A DNA stretch of 63,108 bases, filler included, from Blastocystis sp. subtype 4 (lineage: Eukaryota), in assembly GCF_000743755.1 (NCBI RefSeq). It is 23 parts of 23 records of this genome, joined end to end, with 100 filler letters (N's around TTAATTAATTAA, not from the genome) between each part and the next. Parts side by side here need not be neighbours in the genome. Positions count along the whole stretch, not along the records: positions 51,055 to 53,405 come from NW_014568865.1; 22 more parts are not named here. One strand, 5' to 3'. Below the pieces are notes generated by a model that was not told where the DNA came from, did not search any database, and worked only from the letters and a program-made list of their open reading frames with translations. The stretch's first letter is position 1, and each line of letters starts with the position of its first letter. Both the position numbers and the translations under genes were made by a program. Shown one piece after another: positions 1,705 through 58,290 of this stretch.

Positions 1705-1868
1705 AATGGAAATAAGAAATGAATGATATGAGTAATGAATGATGAGAATGATATTCCCGTGATTGTATTCAGTAATATTGAATACGAATGTAATGGTTGA
1801 ATATGGATAGAATGAGTGATAATCATTGTCACCCCCTTCCATATGATATTCATTATGATTTCATTAAT

Positions 1869-3587
1869 ATGAAGATTAATGAATTGTTCATTGATTCTAT
1901 GACTGATATGAGCAACATCAATATTAGGAATAGTAGTTCATGTCTTGAATTCCTTGGTGATTATGCGATGGAGAGTGTTGAACTGAAGAATGGTGATGAA
2001 TTGAATGGAAAAGCGATAATGAGATTGTTGATAGATGGTGAAAGATATGAAATGAGTGTGAATATGAAGAATGGTAAGAAAGAAGGAGTTGGTGAGATAC
2101 TGAGAGAAGATGGAACACTGTTTATGAGAATGACGTTTGTGAATGATGAATGTGAAGGAGAACTGATAAAGAAGAACGAATATGGAAGCATTGTGTTAAA
2201 AGGGAGAATGGAAAAAGGAAAGGAAGTGGGAATGTGGATAGAATATGATGACTATGGAAATGAGATATGGAGAGGATTCTATCGAAATGGTGAAAAGGAT
2301 CTATCATTGAAAGAATATGAAGGAATGAGTGGATTATGGAGAGAAGTGAATGAGAGAGGAGAATTGTTGAGTGTGAGCGAATATGATGATGGATTATTGA
2401 AGAATGGTAAGTGTTTTGAGTATGAAGGAGGAAGATTGGTTAGAGAATGTGAATACAAGAATGGAGTAATGATGAGAGTATTGAGAGAATGGAAAGGAGA
2501 ATGCATGATTGAATATGATGATAATGGAATGAGAGTATATGAAGGAGGATTTGAAGGAGATATGATGAAAGGATTTGTTCGAGAGGGGAAAGGCAAAGAA
2601 TATGGAAATGATGGCAAGAGTGCATTGTATGTAGGTGGATGGAAGAATGGAAAGAGAGATGGATATGGAAGTGAATTCAAAGGACGTAATCCTGTTTATA
2701 TTGGAGAATGGAAGAATGGAATGAGACATGGAGCTGGAAAGGAATTGAATGATAGTGGAGAAGTGATAAGAAGTGGAAGATGGAACAAAGGTGAACATGA
2801 AGATCCGATAAAGCGTTTAGACGATGGATATGGAACGGATTTAAGTGAATTTGATACTGATTGTTTGAAAGGAGTTGAGAGACTAGAGATAGGAAAATAC
2901 TGTTTTAAGAAAGCAATTCAACTTGTGATAGATGGATTGAATGAATTGAAGAGTATTATCATTGGAATAGATAGCTTCAGTTATGATAATAGAAAAGGAA
3001 GCAAATGTGTGATAATGAACTGTGATCAACTGAATGAAATCAACATTGGAGCGAAGTCATTCCACTGTTATGAATCATTTGAATTGAAGAATCTTCCTTC
3101 TCCCATATCTATTCAATTGGATAAAGACGCATTTGAGTGGTGTCATTCAATAGTATTTGAGAGTATGAATGATTGAATGAATGATGAATAAGATCTAACT
3201 CGACTTCAATCTATCATTCTTGGAAAATGGGCTCTACTTGGTGATTATGATACTGTTGAATCAAATGAATTGATAATGAAGAGTATGAATGATAATGATG
3301 ATTGATTGATGAGATCTCCCTTCTCTATCTCTATTCAAAGGAAAAGACTACAACTTCGTATACATAAGCAAAGTGCAAATAGATAGTGATGATTGATAAT
3401 TGAATATGAAATAGACATTCCATCACTCACTAAGGATGGAATACAAATGGGAGAGAATGTACTCAGTAGAGTGAAAGAATTGGTTTGTTCAAGTACTATT
3501 GATTGATTGATAATGACCAAGAACAGAATAGAAACTGCTGCTCGATTATCTAGTGAGCTCTCTTTGTTTGTTCATGATAACCCTTAA
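1869..3587 (+). CDS. MORN-repeat protein with C-terminal BspA-like leucine-rich repeats (multi-exon; start and last exon approximate)
   Basis: MORN repeats YEGGFEGDMMKG, YVGGWKNGKRDGYG and YIGEWKNGMRHGAG, then LRRs (LEIGKYCFKK, FELKNLPS). After a 30-nt intron at 3163-3192 the frame continues as NLTRLQSIILG...NLPSL...NIPSL. Confidence 0.8.
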
Positions 3588-6360: not shown

Positions 6361-7112
6361 NNNNNNNNNNNNNNNNNNNNNNNNNNNNNNNNNNNNNNNN
6401 NNNNTTAATTAATTAANNNNNNNNNNNNNNNNNNNNNNNNNNNNNNNNNNNNNNNNNNNNATGATTTCTTATCTATATCAATGACTGCATGAGATTCACC
6501 AGCTGGTATAACAGCACTTATCACTAATTGACTCAATGGTAGACTATTGTTCATTTACTAACAACTCCTTTCGAATGTTTCATCTTCAACAGTATTCAAG
6601 TATCTGACTTGAGGATCATCAGTAATCATTGTAGTAATCAGATTGTTGTTCTGATTGACATTCTTAAGATCAGATGTTCGTACAGTTTAAGAATAGACTT
6701 GTATCACTTGTCTCTTTCTAGTGATATCAATGATGTTTGTTTCTATTACCTCCTTGTTCATATACTGTTAGATCCAGAATATCGATGAAATCAAGTACTT
6801 GGAATAATCAAATGAACAATTGGAATCAATGTGAATACAACCATAACTGGAAGCTGTACTGGGTATTGAGAGTAATATGAATTGCATTTGATTGAACATA
6901 GAAATCATGTGAGATAGAGAATAATATCGTTTATCAAACACAACAGATTCTCCTTTACCGTTAGATACAGTATTGGTTTGATCAATGTTGGAGAGAGCAG
7001 GAGTTGCTTGCAACTGCTCAAGTGATGCCGAATATAATGTTAGTAATACTGTGATGATTGTAATGAATGGATTGAATCGATAAGGATTGTCCTAAGTGAA
7101 TGACCTATATGT

Positions 7113-7400
7113 TGGTTTGCCTTGAATGATTATTGAGTAGTGCATTTACTATAATGACACAATTCTTGTTCTTGCTAGCGAGCCCTACGGGGCTAGTTTG
7201 ACCTTAGGTCAGACTGTCGGCAAATTGATTTGAAATGGTTAGCTGAGGTTTCCATTTTGATGACAATAGTCCATTTGAATTGGTCAGTTCTTACCAACAT
7301 TTTTGACTCTTTGTAGTTCGTAGGGTTAGTTACCCATATTTTGATGATTCTTCCTCAATCTTTTTTACGTAACATATGTCTATTACCTACTGCTTTGCTT
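7113..7400 (+). repeat. Diverged dispersed repeat family, copy A (others at 13550-13761, 36231-36636 and 58983-59198)
   Basis: Shared blocks CTTGAATGATTATTGAGTAGTGCATTTA at the start and ACGTAACATAYGTC..TTACCTACT at the end. Confidence 0.65.
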
Positions 7401-7585
7401 ATTGTGAAGAATACCACATTAGAAATAGGCAGTTTTGGATAGATCAAATAGCTGGACACCAATATGATGCATTCTTTTGTTGACATTTAGTAATGAAGTT
7501 ATCATCATCTTACGCAGAACAAACGGAATTATTTCTTGGTTAGTAACAATATTGCACTCAGTGTGTGAACTAACAAATAAATGGA

Positions 7586-8949
7586 CTAGACATAAGAACT
7601 TCGACTTCGAATAAACGATTCAAGAGCTGTAGCATCTACATCTGAATCAACAATCTAATTATAGACTGTTCACTTTAAGAGTGTGAGTATAGCGGAATTG
7701 ATAAGAATTGGATACTTCAATAGGGAGAGGGGACCTCACATCTACTGTTTGATAACTCCAAATGTGTTACTGTCTAAGATAACATAACCCATATTCTCAA
7801 ACACAGAACCATCAATTCTTAGTGTTAAAGATGGTAGATCTGATAATTAGAACTTGAATATACATACCCCTCATGATAAGAGTATTATTATAGTAATAAG
7901 GAATAACATTAGTTGTCTTTGTCGAAGTCGAACCAACCATACAAGTGTACCCTAATCGTAATACTGTCAATTTAGGAAGATCTGATAGTTCAATTCGCAT
8001 TATCACTTACTCTCGAATACAACATATTCTGCATTCTGGAAAGCATTTCTTCCTAGATCAATAGTCTCCAGTGATGGCAAGTCTACAATTCATCTGTCCT
8101 ATCACTCTTACCTCTGAATACTGCATTTCGAGTACGTACAAAACAACCATAGTCATAAAACCCCATTACAATAGATTTCAGTTGAGGTAACTGAGCCAAT
8201 TCAAACCAATTGTATCGATAACACGAATTACCTCTTATATACAAGCTTTTCAGACGTGGACAATTCACAATCTTGAATGAACTGCCCTCCAATAATGATT
8301 GCATACCAGGATAAACAAAAGTGTAATACCCAATATTCACTGATTCAAGCCAATTGAGTCCAACTATAGTGAGCATAGGTACATAGTTGAAGCAGTTATC
8401 ACCAATCACAACACTTCTAAGAAACTTGAATGAACTCAAATCAACAACGTTATTGGTCCTCACAGAACATGCACCGTTTACTACAGTTAGTGCAGTTACA
8501 TACCAAGGAATACTAAAATAGGTATTCCAATCCCTTACTGTGTATCTAGTCATCAATCAACACTCAATTCCTCACGAATGACTCATTGAACTCAGACTAT
8601 TCTCACCAATAATCACTTCATTCAACAACTCAGGTCGCGATTCCGTGATATTCACAATCTCATTTAGAGAGTTCTTTCCAATCACCAATGACTTCAAATG
8701 AACAAATCGACTTAAATCCAAAGAAGTGAAATTGACTTCATTACAACAATTGTCAGCAATTATCAACTTGCTTATATTAACTGGAGCATTCAATACACTT
8801 GTCATGCTATTTGCTTCATAAATCCATTCAACATCAACAGTGTTACTCATTTCAATCTTGTTCTTCAATTGTTCAGCTAATTGCATATCCATTTCACTTC
8901 CACTTGTTGTCAATCTCACAACAGAACTCAATGTGTTATTACCAATCTC
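7586..8949 (-). CDS. BspA-like leucine-rich-repeat protein (multi-exon, 5'-truncated by gap)
   Basis: LRRs LDLSRFVHLKSLVIGKNSL, DLSSFKFLRSVVIGDNCF, LPKLTVLRLG and DLPSL. Introns are 28-31-nt GT-AG; TAG at 7586-7588. Confidence 0.8.
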
Positions 8950-9049
8950 NNNNNNNNNNNNNNNNNNNNNNNNNNNNNNNNNNNNNNNNNNNNTTAATTA
9001 ATTAANNNNNNNNNNNNNNNNNNNNNNNNNNNNNNNNNNNNNNNNNNNN

Positions 9050-10953
9050 ATCCTCTAGCAGCCTGAGACCAACCTGATGTATCATCACCAAACCAATTGG
9101 TAGGCACTTCACCCATCTTATAATACCATTGTTCTGAATGATTGATGATAGGACGACGAACATAATGATGATGAACATTATTCTGATCAGTATCATATCG
9201 ACCTTTCACAACGATCTCCCGTTCACCATCAGGCAACATAGCATACATGTAATAATATGAACCAGATGACCAATAGGTAGATGTGGAATAGAATGAAACA
9301 TCAAATCGCTCGACAGTGATACAGAGATACGTTTCCCAATCTGTATCAGCAGTATGAGAATGACCAGATTGAACCTCAAAAAGAATGTCATCATTGGAGG
9401 AATCACGAATAGTGAAATACTCATTCTGAGGATTGGTCTTGTAAGTTCGAACAATCTTGTAAAATGTCCCAACACACTCATTAAAGGTAATACTAATAGT
9501 AGTTTGAAGTTGGCTTGTTCCTATTGTTGCTTCAATCTGATAAGAAATAGGAGAAGAAGCAACAGTTGCTGTTCCAGAAATGATACAAGTATCTGGATCA
9601 AGTGTCAGACCATCAGGAAGTTGTGGAGAGATAGAACAACCAGTATAACCAAACATAGTGGGAACGATGTTGATTACATCATAGTCCTTGTAGAACGAAT
9701 ATTGGCTTTGAGGATAGGATATACTCGTTGAAACAGCCCGATTACAGACAAGGAATTGAAGCTCATGCACATAAATAGCTCCTTCGTGAGATGTTTGAGT
9801 ATTGAATCGAATCAGAGGGTACTTGGGAAGTGTACTCACTAAATCCCATTGAGCCCATGTACTTGATTCATAAACTTGTCCAGAAATGAGTATAATAGTA
9901 TTCCAATCAGATATTTGTCGGCTGCGTATAAGGCCATAAACGAAAAGAGTTGATATAAGGAATAGATCCAGATATCTCGAAAGTGAGTGAACCAGGAGGA
10001 GAAGAGATATAGGCTCCAGTATTTCTCGAAAACGCTACAGCATAATTCGGATTCTCAAATCCAGTTGATGTAGCTGTGACTTCATTTGGAACAACGAAAC
10101 AATTGTTTGAAGAACTCAAACCAGCCATGAGTGAGATGAATCCATCAAACTGAATAAACACAGAGGTTGAAAGATCCACAGGATGGACTTCAACAGCCAG
10201 AATACTTGACACAGTCACCTCATTAGCATTGCGAATGATTCCATGATAGTCATAGAATGCATAGCTTCCTGTAGCCACAGTACTACTCGTTGGTTCACCA
10301 TCAGGCATGTTGTCTCGATACACTTCAGCACCATTAATGTAAGCCACAACACCAAATCGATAGTTCAGTTGCAACTCAAAAGCGGCCATATTGTCAACTC
10401 CAGTGAACTGTCTACGGAAGTATTGAACTCCTTGTCCAACTACTGCTTCTCCACCTGCCATATAGTCAGTCCAAGTACTATCATCAAAGCTGTACTCTTT
10501 CCAGTTTCCAGAGAGGTTATTAGTGTATTTCCAAGGTTCATTCTTGTTGATAGGAGAATACAAAGACAAAGGTTCTGTCTGAGTTCTTCCTTCAGTCATC
10601 ATTGTCTTGTACATCACATTTCCATTAATACTCTCGAATTTGATCCAAGCACCATCAGCCCATGAATCACCATAACTATCGAGCATTTCTAGAGTATACT
10701 GATGGTTTGTGGAAGCTGACAAGCACACTTCAATCTCTCTTTCATCACTATCCGTGAATGATGGAGAAGTATAAACGACTGTTGAACCAGAATAAATCCT
10801 GAATGACTCTTCACTTGAAAAGGATCTAGTCTTTTTGGTTATCTTTGTATAAACTTGGCTGGAAGAACAATCAAGAGAAGAAGCAATTATTGCTATGAGT
10901 GATGTAACTAATATGCAAATACAAAGAATGGTTAATAACAAAACCCAATCCAT
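9050..10953 (-). CDS. Secreted/surface protein of the expanded family (beta-sandwich plus putative Ig repeat); frameshift or deletion near 9907; 3'-truncated
   Basis: Signal-like N-terminus (MDWVLLLTILCICILV), family motif VAYINGAEVYRDNMPDG and Ig-like LPDGLTLDPDTCIISGT. The frame switches at about 9905 to DWNTIILISGQ. Confidence 0.75.
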
Positions 10954-23543: not shown

Positions 23544-25879
23544 TTGATGAGAGTGAATGAGAATTGAGAATAATGAAGATTGGATAGAGGAATAATGACT
23601 AGAATGGAGATTGTGAATTGAGTTGATCCAACTTGATTGGATACTTGAATGGTGATGTTTGTGAGAGGAATAGAAGATAGAGGCGTTCCAGATATGATTC
23701 CTGTTGATGAATGGAATGATAGACCAATAGGAAGAGATCCAGATATAATGGAGAATGACAGATCATCTCCATTGACTATAGGAGAGATAGAGAATGGACT
23801 GTCCTTTGATAGAGCATATGAAGATTGAGAATAAGAGAATGAAGTGATAGGAGTGAGAACAATGAATGAAAGAGAAAATGATTGATCACTCACTTGATTG
23901 AATGCTTTGATAGTGACTGATTGAGATGATACTGATTGAGAAGGAGTTCCTGATATCATTCCAGTTGTTGAATTGATAGATAGACCAATAGGAAGAGATC
24001 CTGAGATGATTGAGAATGATAGATTATCTCCATTGACTGTAGGAATGATTGAAACAGGATCATCTCTTGATAGAACATAAGATGATTGAGAATAAGAGAA
24101 TGAAGATATAGGAGTGATAACAGTGAATGAAAGAACAACAGTTTCAATTGCTGTTCCACTCATTGCTTCGATTGTGACTGATTGAGAAGAGAGTAATTGA
24201 GAAGGAGATCCAGAGATGACTCCAGTTGATGGATTGATAGATAGACCAATAGGAAGTGATCCTGAGACAATGGAGATAGTAGAGACTTTGGTGAGATTGG
24301 GAGTGATAGAGAAGGATAATCCTTGACCAAGAGTGAGATTGGTTTGAGGATATGAGATGAGATGAATGATATCAATAGAAATAGGACGAGCGACTATGAA
24401 TGAACCAGATACAGCAGTGATAGTGTAAAGAGATGAATAGGAGGAGAGATATCCAGAGATAGAACAAGAAGAAGGATTAAGAATGAGTCCTTGAGGAAGA
24501 GGAGGAGTGATCATACAATTCGTTATACCATTCATATCAATTGTTAATGAAAATGAATCATTAATGAAGAATGAATAGGAGGATTGAGGAAGAAGAGTAG
24601 CGTCTCGATTACAGGTCATGAATTGAAGTTCATGGATTGAGGCAAATTCAGTTGATTGAACAGAATTGACAGTGAACTTGATTGATTTGAATTGTGAAGG
24701 AGAATTCAATGACCATTGTTTCCATGAGTATCGATTATAAGTCTGACCAGATTGAGTAGTCCAAGAAGAATCAGAATCGCTTCCTGATACAATGAATGAA
24801 GATGGAGACTCACTTGGAGCACTACCAGTATATAATCGAATAGAATTGATAAGAGGAATGATAGTTCCAAATGAACCAATCACATATCTAGGAAGAGAAG
24901 AACGACGAATGAATGTAACATAATTCCACTGGTAATCAAATGCTCCTGAGAGATCATTCAATGTTCCAGAAGCAGAGATAGAATGAGGATAAACAGAACA
25001 AGGATTATCAGTAGAAATGCCAGATTGATAAGAAATGAAAGAATTGAAATCGATAGTTCTTTCATTAACAGAAGTGAAATGAAGTTCAACAGAGATAACA
25101 GATTGATTGAATTGAGCATAGAAAGCAGGAAGAATGATTCCTCGATAAGAAGAATAAGAATATGAATTAGTAGCGAGAGTGGAATTATCAATAGTCCCAT
25201 CAGGCATATTGTCTCTGAATACTTCAATTCCATTGATATAAGCAATGATACCATGAGAATAGTAGAATTGAATATCGATAGAAGCCATTCCAGTGATTCC
25301 ATTGAATGATTTCCTGAAGTACTGAGTATTGTATGAAGTGATAGAAGAAGATCCGAGAATGATTGATATCCATTGATTATCATTGAATGAATTGGTATTC
25401 CAGAGAGAATGATAACTATCACTGTATCTCCAATTACCATTCTTATTGATAGGAGAATACAGAGCAAATAGATAACTCTCTTCACTTACACCACAACTCA
25501 TGATGTTCTTGAAGATAGTATTATCATTGATATCATTCATTGAGATCCATCCACCTCCATCCCATCCCCTACTATTTGAATCTTTCATGATAAGAGTGTA
25601 GATATGATTAGAAGAAGCATTCAAACAGACTTCATACACATATTCTTGATGTTGTTTACTGCATCGAGGAGAAGTGAATAGAGTAGATGATCCAGAAACA
25701 ATCTCAAATGACTCTCCAAAAGGATAATAACCACCACTCTTCATAGTGATCTTAACATAATGTTGATTAGATGAACATTGAATAGAGTAAGAAAGGATAA
25801 CTAGAAATGAGAGTAGAATGAAGAATGAAACAGAATGTGAAGAATAGAATGAGATGATTGATACTACAATCAACAACAA
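23544..25879 (-). CDS. Surface protein with tandem putative-Ig (He_PIG-like) repeats; 3'-truncated
   Basis: AYINGIEVFRDNMPDG domain plus repeats of FSIISGSLPIGLSINxxTGxISGTP. Confidence 0.8.
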
Positions 25880-38907: not shown

Positions 38908-41120
38908 TTACGATGAATGAGAAGGAGTTGGATTATCATAAACTGTGAACATGTTAGGAGGATTATCAACTGGAACAGATGATTTGTTGGTTTGAGGAGT
39001 ATGATTTGAGTTGGTTTGATATGAGATTGGAAGCTTCCGAGACCGATGCTTCCGATACAAATGTATATGAGACTTCTTTCGAATGATAAGAATGAGAATG
39101 AGAATGAGAATGATAAGAATAGAAAGAGAGATGAGAATGATAGTGAGAGTGGATAGAGCATTGACAGTAAAGGATAGTTGAGTTTGAATGAATCCGAGTT
39201 GATTGGAAGCCTGAATAGTGATAGATGTAGATGGGAATGTAGATGAAGGAATACCAGAAATGATTCCAGTTGATTGATTGAGAGATAGACCAGGAGGAAG
39301 AGTTCCTGAAGTGATTGTGAATACAGGATTGTCTCCTGAAATGATTGGAGAGACTGAGAATGATTGTCCTTTGATGAGAGTGAATGAGAATTGAGAATAA
39401 TGAAGATTGGATAGAGGAATAATGACTAGAATGGAGATTGTGAATTGAGTTGATCCGACTTGATTAGATGCTTGAATGGTGATGTTTGTGAGAGGAATGG
39501 AAGATAGAGGAGTTCCAGATATGATTCCTGTTGATGAATTGATAGATAGACCAACAGGAAGAGATCCAGAGATAATGGAGAATGATAGATCATCTCCTTC
39601 ACAGGTGGGAGTTGTACTGAAATAGGTGTTGTTTTGAATGATGAAGATGGTTTGATTGTAGTTGAGAGATGAAGGAATGAGTTGAATAGTGAATGAAAGA
39701 GAGAATGATTGATCACTCACTTCATTGAATGTTTTGATTGTGACTGATTGAGATGATACTGATTGAGAAGGAGTTCCTGATATCATTCCAGTTGATGGAT
39801 TGATAGATAGACCAATAGGAAGCGATCCTGATGCGAGGGAGAAAAAAGGACAGGACTGGTCCCTTGTACAGTTGGTAAAACTGAATAATCTTCTCCTAGA
39901 ACAAGGATGTAAGAAGTCCGAGGATAAGAGAATGAAGAAACAGGAATTAGAACAGAAAAAGAAAGAGTGAATGATTGATCACTCACTTCATTTGAGGCCT
40001 TGATTGTGACCAACTGTGATATAACAAACTGAGAAGGAGTTCCTGATATCATTCCAGTTGTTGAATTGATATATAGACCAATGGGAAGAGATCCTGATGT
40101 GATAGAGAATGATAGTTGATCTCTATTGACTGTAGGAGTGATAGAAAATGATTCATCTATTAAAACAGTAAATGAAGTTTGAGAATAGCTAAGTGAAGTA
40201 ATAGAAGTGATGATGGTAATAGAAAGAGAGAATGATTGATCACTCACTTGATTTGAGGCCTTGATTGTGATGGATTGAGATACGACTAATTGAGAAGGGA
40301 TTCCTAATATCACTCCAGTTGATTCATTGAGTGTCAAACCTGTAGGAAGTGATCCTGAAGTGATAGAGAATGATAATTTATCTCCATCAACAGCAGGAGT
40401 CACAGAGAATGACTGATCTTTTGCGAGAACATAAGCAGCATAAGGATAGGAGAATGAAGAAATGGAAGTGAGTACTGTAAATATGAGTGTAACAGAAAGA
40501 TCACTCACTTCATTGAATGCTTTGATTGTGACTGAATGAGATATCACAAATAGAGAAGGAAACCCTGAGATGACTCCAGTTGATGGGCTTAGAGATAATC
40601 CAATAGGAAGTGATCCTGATGTAATCGAGAAAGACAAGTCATCACCAGTGATTGAAGGAGTAGCCGAAAAAGGACGATTCTTTGACAGAATGTAAGTTGA
40701 TTGAGGATATGAGAACACTGAGATGGATTGAAGAATGGTAAATGAAAGGATGAATGATTTATCATTGACATCATTCGATGCTTTGATAGTAACTGATTGC
40801 GATATAATGACTAGAGATGGAATTCCAGATACCATTCCAGTTAAAGGATTAAGAGATAATCCAATAGGAAGAGATCCTGATATGATAGAGAAAAAAGGAT
40901 CACTTCCAATGACAGTGGGAAAAACAGAGAATGATTCACCAGCTGATAGGATATAGGATGATTGAGGATAAGATAATGAAGAGATAGGAGTGATAACAGT
41001 GAATGAAAGAACAACAGTTTCAATTGCTGTTCCACTCATTGCTTCAATTGTGACTGATTGAGAAGAGAGTAATTGAGAAGGAGATCCAGAGATGACTCCA
41101 GTTGATGGATTGATAGATAG
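38908..41120 (-). CDS. Tandem putative-Ig (He_PIG-like) repeat surface protein, C-terminal part with TM helix; frameshift near 39835
   Basis: Multiple SGSLPIGLS..TG.ISG.P repeats; TM IILISLSILIILILILILII. Segments are near-identical to 23544-24250. Confidence 0.8.
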
Positions 41121-50633: not shown

Positions 50634-50718
50634 GCTAGAATGCCCGAGTTGGTCCAAGGGGGTGGACTTAAGATCCTCTGTGTTCAGTCACTCGTGGGTT
50701 CGAACCCCACTTCTAGCA
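50634..50718 (+). tRNA. tRNA-Leu(TAA)
   Basis: Acceptor stem GCTAGAA/TTCTAGC plus A73, D-loop TGGTCCAAGG, anticodon loop CTTAAGA, long variable arm, GTTCGAACCC T-arm and a downstream T-run. Confidence 0.93.
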
Positions 50719-50954: not shown

Positions 50955-52385
50955 NNNNNNNNNNNNNNNNNNNNNNNNNNNNNNNNNNNNNNNNNNNNTT
51001 AATTAATTAANNNNNNNNNNNNNNNNNNNNNNNNNNNNNNNNNNNNNNNNNNNNATTCACATCTTATTCACATCCTCTATTCTCAAACATCAATCAATCC
51101 AATACCAATCCCAAATCTCAATCTATTATCTTTCATAAACCATACTATTCTCTATCTCACATTCTTATACTCAATCAAAACCAATACACATCATTCTCAA
51201 TATCCAATGCTCTTTTCCACTTATCCTTCCATTCACATTCTTCACTTCATTTCTATCAACCACTTCATATCACTCACATACCCTAATCTCACCTACTCTA
51301 ACACATCATTACCATCTAACATCCAATCCATTATCTTCCAATAACCATTTCTTCATAACCAACGATTCTCTTCACACAATCTACATATCAACATACCATC
51401 ATCTCAATCCAACCATTCAAATCCAATCAAACTCACTTTTNNNNNNNNNNNNNNNNNNNNNNNNNNNNNNNAAATCATTGCTTTATCCATTCTTCATGCT
51501 TATCCACCATAATCAACAATCATATCCACTCACTGGACTCATAACAGACTTCATCCTTATCATTTCTCAATCATCTCATTTCTAACAGACTTATCAATCA
51601 TTACAACATACCTTCTCTACTTTCATTCATTTCACTCTTCAACCACCAAGCAAACACAATATCATTGTGTTCCTTGTACTCTTCAATCAACCTCCTTTCT
51701 AACAAATTCAATCATTCATTCTCTGAATGTCGAAGCTCAATGAGAAAACAATCTATTCAACTCATAGGAACACAATTCAACAACAACCCAGAATAGACAA
51801 TCATAACGAGATTTCTCTTCTTTCTTCATATATCATTTCAATCTCACAATCACCTTACAACTCATGTCTTCCAACAAACACACTATCTCAATCAACTAAC
51901 ACATACACAACTTCCGCTTCCAATTAACCATTCAACACCAACACCATCTACATCTTATCTTCAACTCTTTATCACACTCCTTCCATTCAATTCATAAACA
52001 CTACTGCTACTCATATCAACTCAACTCAGAATTCCAATATCTACTCTCAACTCAATTCATTACTCATACTCTACAAACACAACACATCCAATATACCTCA
52101 AACAATACCAACCACTATGCATTCACACAACATCATTCACATCTAATCATCATTCTTCATTCTATTCATCACTCTTCATTCTTACACTCTTTCCATAATT
52201 CAAACCACCTCTGCTATTCCATTTACCATCATCTCCTTCAAATGCTCCTTCTAACATATACATCAATTCAAATCTTACTACATCTCATTATTATTCATTC
52301 ATTCAATCATTACTCTCAAATCAAACTCAATCACAACCACCAAATCAATACATATCTGCCAATACATATCCATTCAACTCAACGC

Positions 52386-52463
52386 AACTCTTTCAATCAT
52401 TTCTCACATTCAAACTCTTTCAATCATTTCTCACATTCAAACTCTTTCAATCATTTCTCACAT
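52386..52463 (+). repeat. 27-bp tandem repeat, about 3 copies
   Basis: Unit AACTCTTTCAATCATTTCTCACATTCA. Confidence 0.9.
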
Positions 52464-52967
52464 CACACTCATTCTCATCAATCAAATCAACATCATAACC
52501 ATAATACAACTTACAACATTCATCAACACTTACAATAGACATGCTTCTCACTTCACCAACATTCCATACATCCAATACACAATAATCACACAATCAATAT
52601 CCTACAATAATCAATTCTCTCACACATACACACTTATAATTCCATCCTTCACCATAACACATTCTGCTCCTTATCAATCACTTCATTCCAATATCAATTC
52701 AAATCAATTCATTCACTCCATTCGCTATCAACTCAATTCCTCAACCAAAACACTCATCTCCAATAATCACCCATTTCAGATCACACAATCCACACACATT
52801 CAATCATACAACACTTCAATCCAATTCACAATAATCCTCAAACCTCACATCCTCAACTCATAATCCAATTCAACTCACATCAATCACTTCACCTCTTGCT
52901 TTCACATCAATCACTTCTCCATCATATCAACTCACCAACACTACTCAATCAACAATACAATCATCAA

Positions 52968-53405
52968 CTATTCACTTCAACACTCTCACTCTATTCCAAC
53001 TCATTACAACTACATCCTTCAATACTCACACCTCATCCAATATCTATTCTTTCATACTTACAAATCTCATACTTTCCAACCTTACAAAACCCATATTCCC
53101 AAATACATAACTACTAATGCTTAGTCTCCTCAAACATTCTACATCTCATCATTACAACTCTTAACATACATACTCATCATCATAACACTATTCTTATACT
53201 AATACCGAATTACATCAATTCTCTTTATACAACTCCAACCATACAAACACCAACTCTCTAATCCTAACACTCTCAACTTACAAACATCTCATATCTTCAA
53301 TTCCTATTATCACATACTTTCAAAAACAGTATGCTCTACCCCATCGAAACCATCTTCTCATACATCAATACTCTACAATCATCCCAACTCTACAATCCAT
53401 CTCTT
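52968..53405 (-). pseudogene. C->G hypermutated pseudogene of the BspA-like LRR family (paralog of 7667-8090)
   Basis: Four exons and three intron positions align with the gene at 7586-8949. In-frame stops include TCA->TGA and TAC->TAG. Confidence 0.85.
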
Positions 53406-55949: not shown

Positions 55950-58290
55950 TGTGTTACTGTATCAAAGATTGATAATGTGAAAACAGAATATAAAGTATTT
56001 CATGCTGAACATGAAGATGAAAGAGATTTGATACCATTCATTGATTATCTGATACATATTAAACAAGATGCTTCTGCATATCTGTTTGATGAGACAAATC
56101 TAGAATGGTCTGTTGATGTTGAAAAGGATTATGATAATACTAGTATATGTCCATTTTGTAATTGTGGTATAGGGTCCAAAGATGAAGTTAAAGAAAACAG
56201 TATTAGAATGAGTAGTTGTAGTAAGGATATCTATTTCAAAGAAGGTGAAATTGAAGAATTTCAAAGAAGGTGAAATTGAAGAATTGATGAAAACAAGAGG
56301 AGATGCAATGAATTGGTATGAAGATGAATTAGAGAAACGTCGTAATGCTGATCCATTCTATCAAAAGCAAATCCGTATGAAATTCCTTGAAACAATGGTT
56401 TTGGATGGTAGAGCAAATGATAAACAACAAAATGAGTATGAACAATTGAAGAAAGAAACACGATTAGCAGGTGTTAAAGTGAGACATCATGCTCATGTAT
56501 CAGGAGAATATAGTAATGGTGAATGTGTGCGTTATTATAAAGCAGGAGAATACATTTGTACATGTTGTGATAAATGCAATTTGCAATTATCATTTAACAA
56601 GAAGTACTACAAACTACCTGTATACTTCCATAATGGTATGCGTTATGATAATGCTTATATCATGAGACTATTAGGTAAGTATAAGGCTTTACATCCTAGT
56701 TCAATGGATAAGGAAATGATGATTGAAATGGATGGTATCCAATTCAAAGATTCATACAAAATGATTTCTGCTCCATTAAAGCGTATTGTGAGTGATACTC
56801 TTGGAAATGATTTGAACAATTATCGTTATACAAAACTATTGTTGAAACAGTATTTGGAAGATCATAACAAACCATATGATGAATCATACATAGAATTGAT
56901 GACAGTTCTATGGTTTGATTACATCTTACAAATCTCTATCAACCAGACACATTCCTAAACAAGAAGAATGTTATGATGATTTGTCTCAATCATTCATGTG
57001 TGAAGAAGACTATCAACATATGAAATTGTTGTGGAAAACATTCAATATTCGTAATTGGGGTGAATATTATGAATTATACAATCTGTTGGATGTAACATTG
57101 CTTGCAGATTGTTTTGAACATTTCAGAGACTCAACTATGAAATCATTTGGTGTTGATTCTGCTCATTATCTAACAACACCTCAAATGTCATATTCATTGT
57201 TTCTGAAGAATGTTTCGAATAAGGATGATAGTCGATATTATGATGTAGCTAAGAAATGGGCTAATTATCAAATGAAGATTGGTAAGAATGAGAATTAGTG
57301 AAGAAGAAATGATTGGTATCTTCATGGATCGTATGTCTGAGTTTAATGCATATGGTGGTATTCGTTTGCTTGGTAAGAATGATATGAATGAATTTATATC
57401 CTTAAAAGAATAACTTGCGTGGAGGATTAACACAAATATCAACTCGTTATTCACAAAATGAATGTGATGATGAATCTATGTATTATCTAGATGCAAATAA
57501 TCTGTATGGAGGTGTAATGCATAGAATGATGCCTTATAATATTGTACATATAAGTGATAAGGAGAAATCGAAGATATTGAATAGTAATCCTATAAAATGG
57601 ATAGAATCTCTTGATACATATGATAAGTATGGATATTTCATAGAATGTGATATAGAAGTGGATGATAATAAGCATGATTACTTNAATGATTTGCCACTAT
57701 TTCCTAGTCAGAAGTATGGTGTATATTCAAATCCTATGAAGAAGTTTGCAAATGATTTTGATATTGATGATTTGAATAAGAAGGAAAGTAGTAAGAAACT
57801 GATTTGTGACTTATTGAAGAAGGAACATTATGTTGTACATTATTCGATGTTACAACTTGGTATTGAACTGGGTTATAAGGTTACGAAAATCCATAATGTG
57901 ATCAAATTCAGACAAGCACCATTCATCTATGAGTATGTGAATTTGTTGTCTGAAATGCGTGCTAAGAGTAAGACAGGTGTATTGAAGAATCTGTTCAAGT
58001 TACTTGCAAATTCAATCTATGGTAAGTTTGTTGAGACTGGATTAAAGCGTATGAAGGTGAAATTTGCTACAACAAAAGAAGAACAAAACAGTATTATTGC
58101 TAAATATAGTATTGATTTACTAGATGAAGTACATTTGTATGATACGAACTTATGGGCTGCTAAGATTGCAAATCCTCAAAAGAGAATGTCAAAACCATTC
58201 TTCATTGGATTTGCTATTCTGGATATGTCAAAGTATATCATTTATGACTTCTACTACAATGTGTTAAAGCGTAATATGGAGAATGTGTGT
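55950..58290 (+). mobile_element. Protein-primed family-B DNA polymerase (Polinton/Maverick/adintovirus type), disrupted
   Basis: VRHHAHVSG..C..CNL, Exo II FHNGMRYD, Exo III YNLLDVTLLADCFEHFR, RGG, motif A YLDANNLYG..M and motif B KLLANSIYGKF. Frameshifts and stops near 56260, 56910, 57296 and 57412; intronless. Confidence 0.9.

Follow-up and report, generated by a model that had tools for sequence, protein, structure and literature searches.

One-strand C-to-G substitution in leucine-rich-repeat genes of Blastocystis sp. subtype 4: a real, inherited pattern and its possible origins

How can one DNA strand lose nearly every copy of a single base over a kilobase-long tract? The question was raised by a contig of Blastocystis sp. 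subtype 4 (NW_014568865.1), located at positions 51055-53405 of the 63,108-nucleotide (nt) stretch analyzed here (the window; 23 parts of assembly GCF_000743755.1 joined end to end) and carrying the 3′ part of a leucine-rich-repeat (LRR) pseudogene. An original prediction, made from the sequence alone, attributed the near-absence of G on its + strand to strand-specific C-to-G hypermutation by a processive mutator or genome-defense process. The near-absence was confirmed: of the contig's 2,320 called bases, 738 are C and 45 are G, and its split of G+C is by a wide margin the strongest skew among the 23 contigs of the window. The C-to-G pattern is real and inherited and is not an artifact; it is strong and reaches beyond the contig in which it was first noticed.

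The earlier count for one 114-nt exon, made against an intact LRR paralog in the window, was reproduced exactly (19 Cs, of which 14 read G, four read T and one is kept, with no G-to-C change). Over 463 alignment columns against the same paralog (7642-8095), 52 C-to-G, 10 C-to-T and seven C-to-A changes were found with three Cs kept, and none of the 82 Gs read C. Among the self-alignments of the window, those of the target pairs gave C-to-G versus G-to-C counts of 52/0 and 8/0; in the other 35, C and G exchanges were mostly balanced (e.g., 15/10, 14/19 and 3/4), the most lopsided being 6/0 and 4/0. A 62% identical homolog of the paralog is named as a protein of Blastocystis sp. BT1, which is in turn about 90% identical to a closer, intact sister gene found in metagenomes (gene B, as opposed to the mutated copy A). 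The BT1 strain is listed as subtype 4 (PMC12129017). When A was compared with B over 3.1 kilobases (kb), 464 Cs of B corresponded to 366 G, 40 T, 15 A and 43 kept Cs, and one of 598 Gs read C. Within the 750 columns that aligned best, G had replaced 101 of 109 Cs, and the remaining bases differed by 3.6%.

The direction of change was determined with the LRR paralog of the window (7580-8949) as the outgroup. In lineage A, 104 of 120 ancestral Cs became G and none of 194 ancestral Gs became C, which bears out the expected excess of C-to-G in the ancestral direction and, with it, a strand-specific C-to-G process on repeated gene families. C-to-T changes were not clearly above background (6 of 120, versus 6 of 194 for G-to-A, p = 0.55), and the spectrum of a classical deaminase was not recovered. 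A, G and T changed by about 5% in the same lineage. C alone was thus affected, in exons, introns and spacers alike, at an implied rate exceeding the total background roughly 50-90-fold. Sequence context had an effect: a preceding G made a cold spot (13 of 42 Cs kept in GC versus 27 of 410 otherwise, p = 1e-5), and TCA was the most completely changed triplet (99 of 104 read TGA). AC and CC also lost about 95% of their Cs, a saturation that masks finer preferences for the 5′ neighbor.

At least half of the contig's words were present in 16 public sequencing runs (20 run entries from 12 studies; runs X19-X24, with a small share, were left out). Contigs from 4/4 DNA runs, belonging to four studies, covered 30 of 30 bins, near-identical pieces differed by 0-3 letters, and the same letters recurred in runs dated 2018-2025 from several studies. 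When metagenomes were scanned with a pattern in which two sites could be either C or G, 50 loci were retrieved, with the mutated anchor (copy A) in 24, the unmutated anchor (gene B) in 26, and both in nine record prefixes. The matches in 4/4 DNA runs and 24 of the 50 loci speak against an artifact, and the parallel changes expected of two-color sequencing dropout showed no excess (A-to-T, 26/902; T-to-G, 20/1,029). Compared with most runs, the window lacks 15 nt behind 52637 and 13 nt behind 52944, has five extra nt at 52458 and carries a two-letter change at 52537-52538; these differences are probably assembly errors and have no effect on the result.

The change had been described as covering a whole contig. 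In the longer metagenome loci, however, tract A is about 4.1 kb long and interstitial, with normal DNA on both sides, and its match to a whole contig is an accident of assembly. On the coding strand its C content is 0-8% per 100 nt (about 6450-10552 in locus L032). Ordinary DNA extends for at least 6 kb on one side and at least 3 kb on the other, which leaves a subtelomeric position unsupported. Its 5′ edge is gradual: within a few hundred bases the tract gives way to the 5′ end of a long interspersed nuclear element (LINE), which has the opposite orientation and carries endonuclease and reverse-transcriptase domains. Its 3′ edge is abrupt and lies at window position 51055 (L032 10552), a rearrangement junction where homology to B stops. 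Beyond the two ends a weaker C-to-G bias continues on the same strand (8:0 at 1.2 kb past the junction and 11:1 upstream). About 1 kb of the tract lacks homology to the sister gene, and the segment next to the junction (51055-51440) has a homolog at window 6828-6949, with eight C-to-G and no G-to-C changes. In L033 and L035, the tract is joined to different upstream sequence. B-like blocks were seen inside copy A in five loci (L016, L026, L027, L041 and L049, with one block shared by L027 and L049), and L024, L039 and L050 are A/B mosaics; these may represent gene conversion or assembly chimeras.

The pseudogene within the tract ends at a TGTTTGTT motif (51880-51873), the core of which matches the gene-end motif of PMC12129017. 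It has 22 premature stops in 379 codons, and 18 of them arose by C-to-G change (16 TCA to TGA and two TAC to TAG). As had been suggested, copies are inactivated; intact gene copies have been reshaped too. Introns of the studied genes are about 30 nt long, matching the description for Blastocystis. In the RNA-like run X17, GT-AG introns were removed on the C-poor strand, and such joints were absent from 4/4 DNA runs and from runs X7, X8 and X18. At 53139-53173, splicing took place 6 nt past the ancestral end, at a TAG created by C-to-G change (the ancestral 29-nt intron is 53173-53145). At 52278-52313, the joints seen, which have short sides, stop at a new TAG 6 nt downstream. A 33-nt CT..AC skip was also present in X17 at 51381-51413. 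The depth of X17 was in the hundreds over 52161-53405 and below 10 over 51055-51710, with no cover over most of 51711-52160; depth was not used to rank expression. X7 and X8, which are recorded as RNA, carry the locus unspliced and X18 carries it without joints, and none of these was counted as expression. On the splicing in X17, the pseudogene appears to be still transcribed, with the C-poor strand as the non-template strand.

Some further features of the pseudogene region were recorded. About 17 letters of an ancestral exon are missing from X17 near 52605-52637, a place at which the window is itself 15 nt short; this gap is possibly a new intron of about 30 nt. Throughout the tract, including 52600-52640, C-to-G change gives rise to GT and AG signals within sequence that is free of C and resembles an intron. 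A reading of the contig's long + strand frames as coding sequence was rejected; they are taken as shadows of the absence of G.

Gene B (L040) was modeled as a single gene, open over about 2,300 codons and interrupted by introns of about 30 nt; its last exons are uncertain. It has kept its Cs over the 3.1 kb that it has in common with A, and its own C loss fades toward the 3′ end. The C:G ratio at fourfold-degenerate sites was 7:136 in codons 200-1600 and 31:46 further 3′ (p = 1e-10); the reference ratio from 10 housekeeping gene models, which are unverified, was 265:398. C is absent from introns 1-6. Among the 228 Cs remaining in codons 200-1400, 49 stand where C-to-G change would give a stop and five where it would be synonymous, and TCA accounts for 48 of 76 TCN codons in B versus 91 of 290 in housekeeping genes. 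Internal repeats of B, when aligned, read G in the 5′ copy at sites of C in the 3′ copy (9:2, 12:2, 9:0 and 8:1). At the protein level, C-to-G-type replacements from relatives to B outnumbered the reverse by 271 to 109, with T to R at 26:1 (14 of 15 alignments, which are not independent), and P, A, T, Q and H together made up 1.3% of a 304-amino-acid (aa) exon product versus about 20% in the relatives P0007 and P0021, whose content is normal. Since a single dense burst would ruin the frame, the open frame and the kept stop-avoiding Cs imply many separately selected events. The data point to a process confined to particular loci, active over a long time and filtered by selection, and not to a single burst. 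The single processive pass originally envisaged, with simultaneous origin in one event, does not hold for B, and copy A is compatible with it.

The tract in B starts about 200 nt upstream of a divergent 5S ribosomal RNA (rRNA) gene, and there is no LINE at this start. The 5S rRNA gene (L040 9967-10085 and L011 3179-3297) lies right behind a papain-family protease gene, upstream of gene B. Near codons 810-1000 of B, an exon-intron unit of about 486 nt is found twice in L040 and once in L031, either as a recent duplication or as an assembly difference.

A third tract was found on a single contig (L033), where a dispersed repeat stands as two tandem copies; one of them shows 49 C-to-G and one G-to-C changes. 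The tract ramps from 12% to 86% within about 400 columns (12, 36, 65, 86 and 69% per 100 columns). No start motif was shared across the three tract starts (LINE 5′ end, 5S rRNA gene and dispersed repeat), and no transfer RNA (tRNA) gene was found in the 13 loci checked. In the window, a MORN-repeat/LRR gene (1794-3173) has a C:G ratio of 6:24 at fourfold sites and 0:18 in introns, by an unverified gene model; we infer that it is a milder case of the same skew, produced by a shared mechanism. The 5′ sense strand of the MORN gene in L011 is C-poor as well. That end was considered as a second saturated pseudogene and rejected, as it belongs to an open MORN gene. Introns of housekeeping genes show a mild shortage of C on their sense strand (11% C, 24% G). 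The C-poor strand appears to be the non-template strand at A (by one run) and is the sense strand at B and at the MORN genes; it is the antisense strand at a pair of He_PIG genes in the window and at the LINE 5′ end. These He_PIG genes (23546-25879 and 38911-41120) contain 261-bp tandem units, and their sense strand, unlike that of most genes, is G-poor at fourfold sites.

Single-nucleotide polymorphisms (SNPs) were counted among 23 A loci and the reference, with the mosaics L024, L039 and L050 left out and clustered differences filtered; 39 isolated sites were present in 4,046. The share of C/G SNPs was high in the flanks (10/44 and 12/35), where paralogs may be mixed. These flank SNPs were not taken as proof of current activity: C was present in the outgroup at four of 13 checked L032 positions, and eight were unaligned.

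Because the change affects C only, on one strand and with an effect of the 5′ neighbor, it fits a cytosine lesion in single-stranded DNA. Our tentative explanation, plausible but well short of firm, is that transcription-exposed Cs of the non-template strand are lost as abasic sites, followed by REV1-type insertion of deoxycytidine monophosphate (dCMP). The exposed cytosines would be deaminated and excised, or directly excised; REV1/Pol zeta would put C opposite the abasic site and so fix the C-to-G change; reduced base-excision repair would let the lesions persist; and the distance from the transcription start would set the intensity. Copy A would then be the 3′ part of an LRR gene that was duplicated to within about 4 kb of a transcription start, freed from selection and driven near saturation. 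C-to-G is the outcome of dCMP insertion opposite an abasic site (PMC6765108, PMC11230362), and deaminase mutations in yeast prefer the non-transcribed strand near starts (PMC4420506). The repair table for Blastocystis in PMC5608401 includes REV1 and Pol zeta and has no APE1, Pol beta, XRCC1, OGG1 or PARP.

Several observations weigh against this explanation. Splicing is supported by one run, X17, whose RNA label is a guess. Housekeeping genes, which are presumably transcribed, show only mild skew, and the C-poor antisense strand of the He_PIG pair and of the LINE 5′ end would require antisense transcription, none of which was seen. On its 3′ side, tract A stops abruptly at the junction. Surviving Cs were not enriched in predicted hairpin stems (mean pairing 0.42 versus 0.51). 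Among the 81 residual Cs in A, two isolated C/G sites (plus two T/C/G sites) were found versus about 33 expected at a constant rate, so that either activity at A is now lower or the remaining Cs resist the change. The yeast uracil/abasic route yields 41.7% C-to-T and 46.9% C-to-G (PMC3521656), a ratio from which the observed 40:366 departs (p = 4e-14). Pfam scans of 37 selected proteins detected no deaminase or glycosylase. REV1 and Pol zeta are ticked in subtype 1 (ST1) only in the repair table, which does not cover uracil glycosylase (PMC5608401). The blanks of that table look unreliable because Pol delta, Pol epsilon and PCNA are likewise ticked in ST1 only.

A bolder proposal, which we consider doubtful, is a natural, heritable C-to-G base editor (an undescribed deaminase or cytosine glycosylase combined with dCMP insertion) that is loaded near particular transcription starts and edits the non-template strand over about 4-5 kb, with C-to-G as almost the sole change. 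If true, such an editor would remodel the LRR/MORN families, kill freed copies and make new splice sites. A dedicated mutator, with a deaminase or cytosine glycosylase targeted to certain promoters and diversifying the LRR/MORN families as in somatic hypermutation but heritably, is unlikely. The marked locus specificity compared with housekeeping genes, the 5′-to-3′ decay over about 5 kb in B, the rise in C-to-G change that follows the third tract's start, the hot TCA and cold GC contexts and the visibly reshaped protein sequence of B are all in its favor. However, no enzyme was identified, a move to a C-free state narrows diversity, C/G polymorphisms are few in the 5′ part of B (2/18 SNP sites), and non-coding DNA and a pseudogene are the hardest hit. 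Immunoglobulin somatic hypermutation shows a non-template bias and a 5′ peak with downstream decay; it also changes both strands and A/T, and it is somatic. Transcription-linked deaminase mutagenesis in yeast resembles our tracts in its peak near the 5′ end and its decay downstream, and perhaps in its non-template bias (PMC4420506). These systems differ in being mainly C-to-T, shorter in span and somatic or engineered, whereas the change here is near-pure C-to-G over 4-5 kb and inherited.

Another origin, which we regard as improbable, has replication or recombination supplying the single-stranded DNA (as lagging-strand template, in break-induced replication or by resection) and makes tract A a kataegis-like burst linked to the 51055 junction. 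It would account for a 3′ edge at a rearrangement junction and for residual Cs that are near-fixed among the 23 loci and the reference, and the antisense C-poor genes would need no extra explanation; Blastocystis is without non-homologous end joining and depends on homologous recombination (PMC5608401). One dense burst, however, cannot spare TCA codons while removing synonymous Cs, as in B, and the weaker same-strand bias continues past the junction and upstream. The kataegis of APOBEC/AID in yeast models (PMC3521656, PMC6765108) is alike in its strand-coordinated, C-only changes, kilobase tracts and one edge at a rearrangement; a preference for TC over GC may be shared as well. It differs in that C-to-G and C-to-T make up roughly half each, whereas here about 90% are C-to-G and C-to-T is near background. 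Density differs as well, with one mutation per 5-11 kb in these models and in yeast clusters from break-induced replication (PMC6765108), versus about 90% of Cs hit here, or about one per 8 nt. The tract here is also inherited and fixed across isolates, with a selection-filtered gradient in an intact gene and no deaminase identified.

A lesion on the template-strand guanine (e.g., a further-oxidized form), copied as G-to-C, is very unlikely. The sequence is silent on which strand was damaged, and a G before C is less reactive in guanine-oxidation chemistry, which would fit such a lesion. The companion G-to-T change on the template strand is rare (C-to-A, 15/464), though. Blastocystis moreover lives anaerobically, and the template strand should be protected by transcription-coupled repair. 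OGG1, on the other side, is unticked in the repair table (PMC5608401).

Genome defense, a possibility raised in the original prediction, in the form of a system that marks and mutates repeats or retroelement cDNA is highly improbable. In repeat-induced point mutation (RIP) of fungi, C-to-T changes mutate both copies and are bounded by homology. Tract A resembles RIP in the dense mutation of a duplicated sequence leading to stops and a pseudogene, but the change is C-to-G on one strand and not C-to-T on both, the homologous 3′ part of B was spared, and the tract includes the portion without sister homology. A link to retroelements is suggested by the start of tract A at the LINE 5′ end, its C-poor strand being the LINE cDNA-sense strand, by the position of the third tract in a dispersed repeat, and by the action of APOBEC3A on LINE single-stranded DNA in LINE-1 restriction (PMC4003774). 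The LINE body is intact, however, with open endonuclease and reverse-transcriptase frames of 711 aa and 1,046 aa; most of the tract falls outside the element, its introns are kept, and the start of B has a 5S rRNA gene and no LINE.

A sequencing or assembly artifact, or selection in favor of an RNA rich in G or an antisense product rich in C, can for practical purposes be dismissed: the small window indels, the possible chimeras among five A loci and three mosaics and the apparent transcription of the locus could be cited for it, but the same letters occur across the 2018-2025 runs and 24 loci, nine record prefixes hold both A and B, and the change is C-specific in exons, introns and spacers, and the multi-study runs, the 24 loci and splicing at mutation-made acceptors refute an artifact.

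Other elements were noted in the window and the metagenome loci (window features in Table 1). An apparently full-length non-long-terminal-repeat (non-LTR) retrotransposon with open endonuclease and reverse-transcriptase frames is present at about 161-5250 of L012 and 7205-9337 of L032; it breaks off in L003, L021, L025, L039 and L044, followed by different repetitive sequence. Beside the LINE in L032 (9917-12932, as fetched) is an element with two long open reading frames (ORFs), one matching DUF5906, and inverted repeats of about 250 bp at its ends, which looks like a DNA mobile element. The dispersed repeat of about 500 bp, with a conserved end of about 150 bp, occurs in L033 (150-1300), L003, L021, L031 and L044 and had no Rfam match. 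Nearly intron-free ORFs without a Pfam match occupy window 55950-58290, and their motifs may be those of a family-B DNA polymerase of Polinton-type elements. Intron-poor ORFs at L043 149-3598 and L010 3141-5176 had no convincing Pfam match and are possibly derived from mobile elements or viruses. A tRNA-Leu(TAA) gene lies at 50634-50718, on the neighboring, unlinked contig.

Table 1. Features of the window related to the C-to-G tract and to other C-poor genes
Feature	Position	Strand	Evidence
Window fragment of C-to-G tract A	51055..53405	-	Versus intact sister (L040): C-to-G 290, C-to-T 35, C-to-A 12, kept 33/370; G-to-C 0/420
LRR pseudogene, 3′ part	51873..53389	-	Exons and introns map to intact gene; LRR_8 in homolog P0001
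Intron with ancestral CAG acceptor changed to GAG	53139..53173	-	35-nt CT..AC skip, X17 only, 218 letters on short side
Intron with CAG changed to GAG, no AG nearby, retained	53288..53317	-	X17 record 7 runs ungapped over 53174-53391
Intron with intact TAG acceptor, ancestral ends used	53044..53072	-	X17 omits 29 letters at 53044
Second intron with CAG changed to GAG	52278..52313	-	X17 joints 52277 to 52515/52539/52541, short sides 22-24 letters
27-bp tandem repeat expanded in copy A across intron end	52386..52474	.	Repeat and A/B comparison
Less converted island just 3′ of LRR gene end	51570..51830	-	Cs kept 14/66 versus 19/304 elsewhere, Fisher p = 5e-4
Downstream tract segment ending at rearrangement junction 51055	51055..51440	-	Homology stops at L032 10552
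Intact LRR paralog, comparator of the original prediction, outgroup here	7580..8949	-	Alignment, polarization
MORN-repeat/LRR gene, C-poor sense strand	1794..3173	+	GC skew up to 0.89; MORN match
He_PIG immunoglobulin (Ig)-repeat gene, C-poor antisense strand	23546..25879	-	Sense fourfold C:G 44:8; He_PIG match
Second He_PIG gene, C-poor antisense strand	38911..41120	-	Fourfold C:G 57:21; He_PIG match

Literature searches returned no report of such a one-strand C-to-G pattern; supplements and subscription papers outside these searches may bear on its novelty. The accessible text of PMC12129017, exclusive of supplements, has no mention of skew, pseudogene, leucine-rich, LRR, MORN or telomer, and the main text of PMC5608401, exclusive of most supplements, has none of skew, pseudogene, deaminase or leucine-rich. 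A one-strand C-to-G process in Blastocystis is thus apparently undescribed so far, and it is probably a variant of single-stranded-DNA cytosine mutagenesis that has not been seen before.

A near-pure, near-saturating, one-strand C-to-G change in an inherited genome is unlike RIP, methyl-C decay and APOBEC showers in both spectrum and density. If enzymatic, it would represent a naturally occurring C-to-G editor that is unusually pure and could interest developers of base-editing tools; if passive, it would reveal the effect of reduced base-excision repair on transcription-exposed DNA. The process yields new GT and AG splice signals and would bias phylogeny and selection tests on affected genes. 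Either way, it acts in a very common gut eukaryote as a local directional force on the protein composition of large gene families (T to R, T to S, A to G and Q to E).

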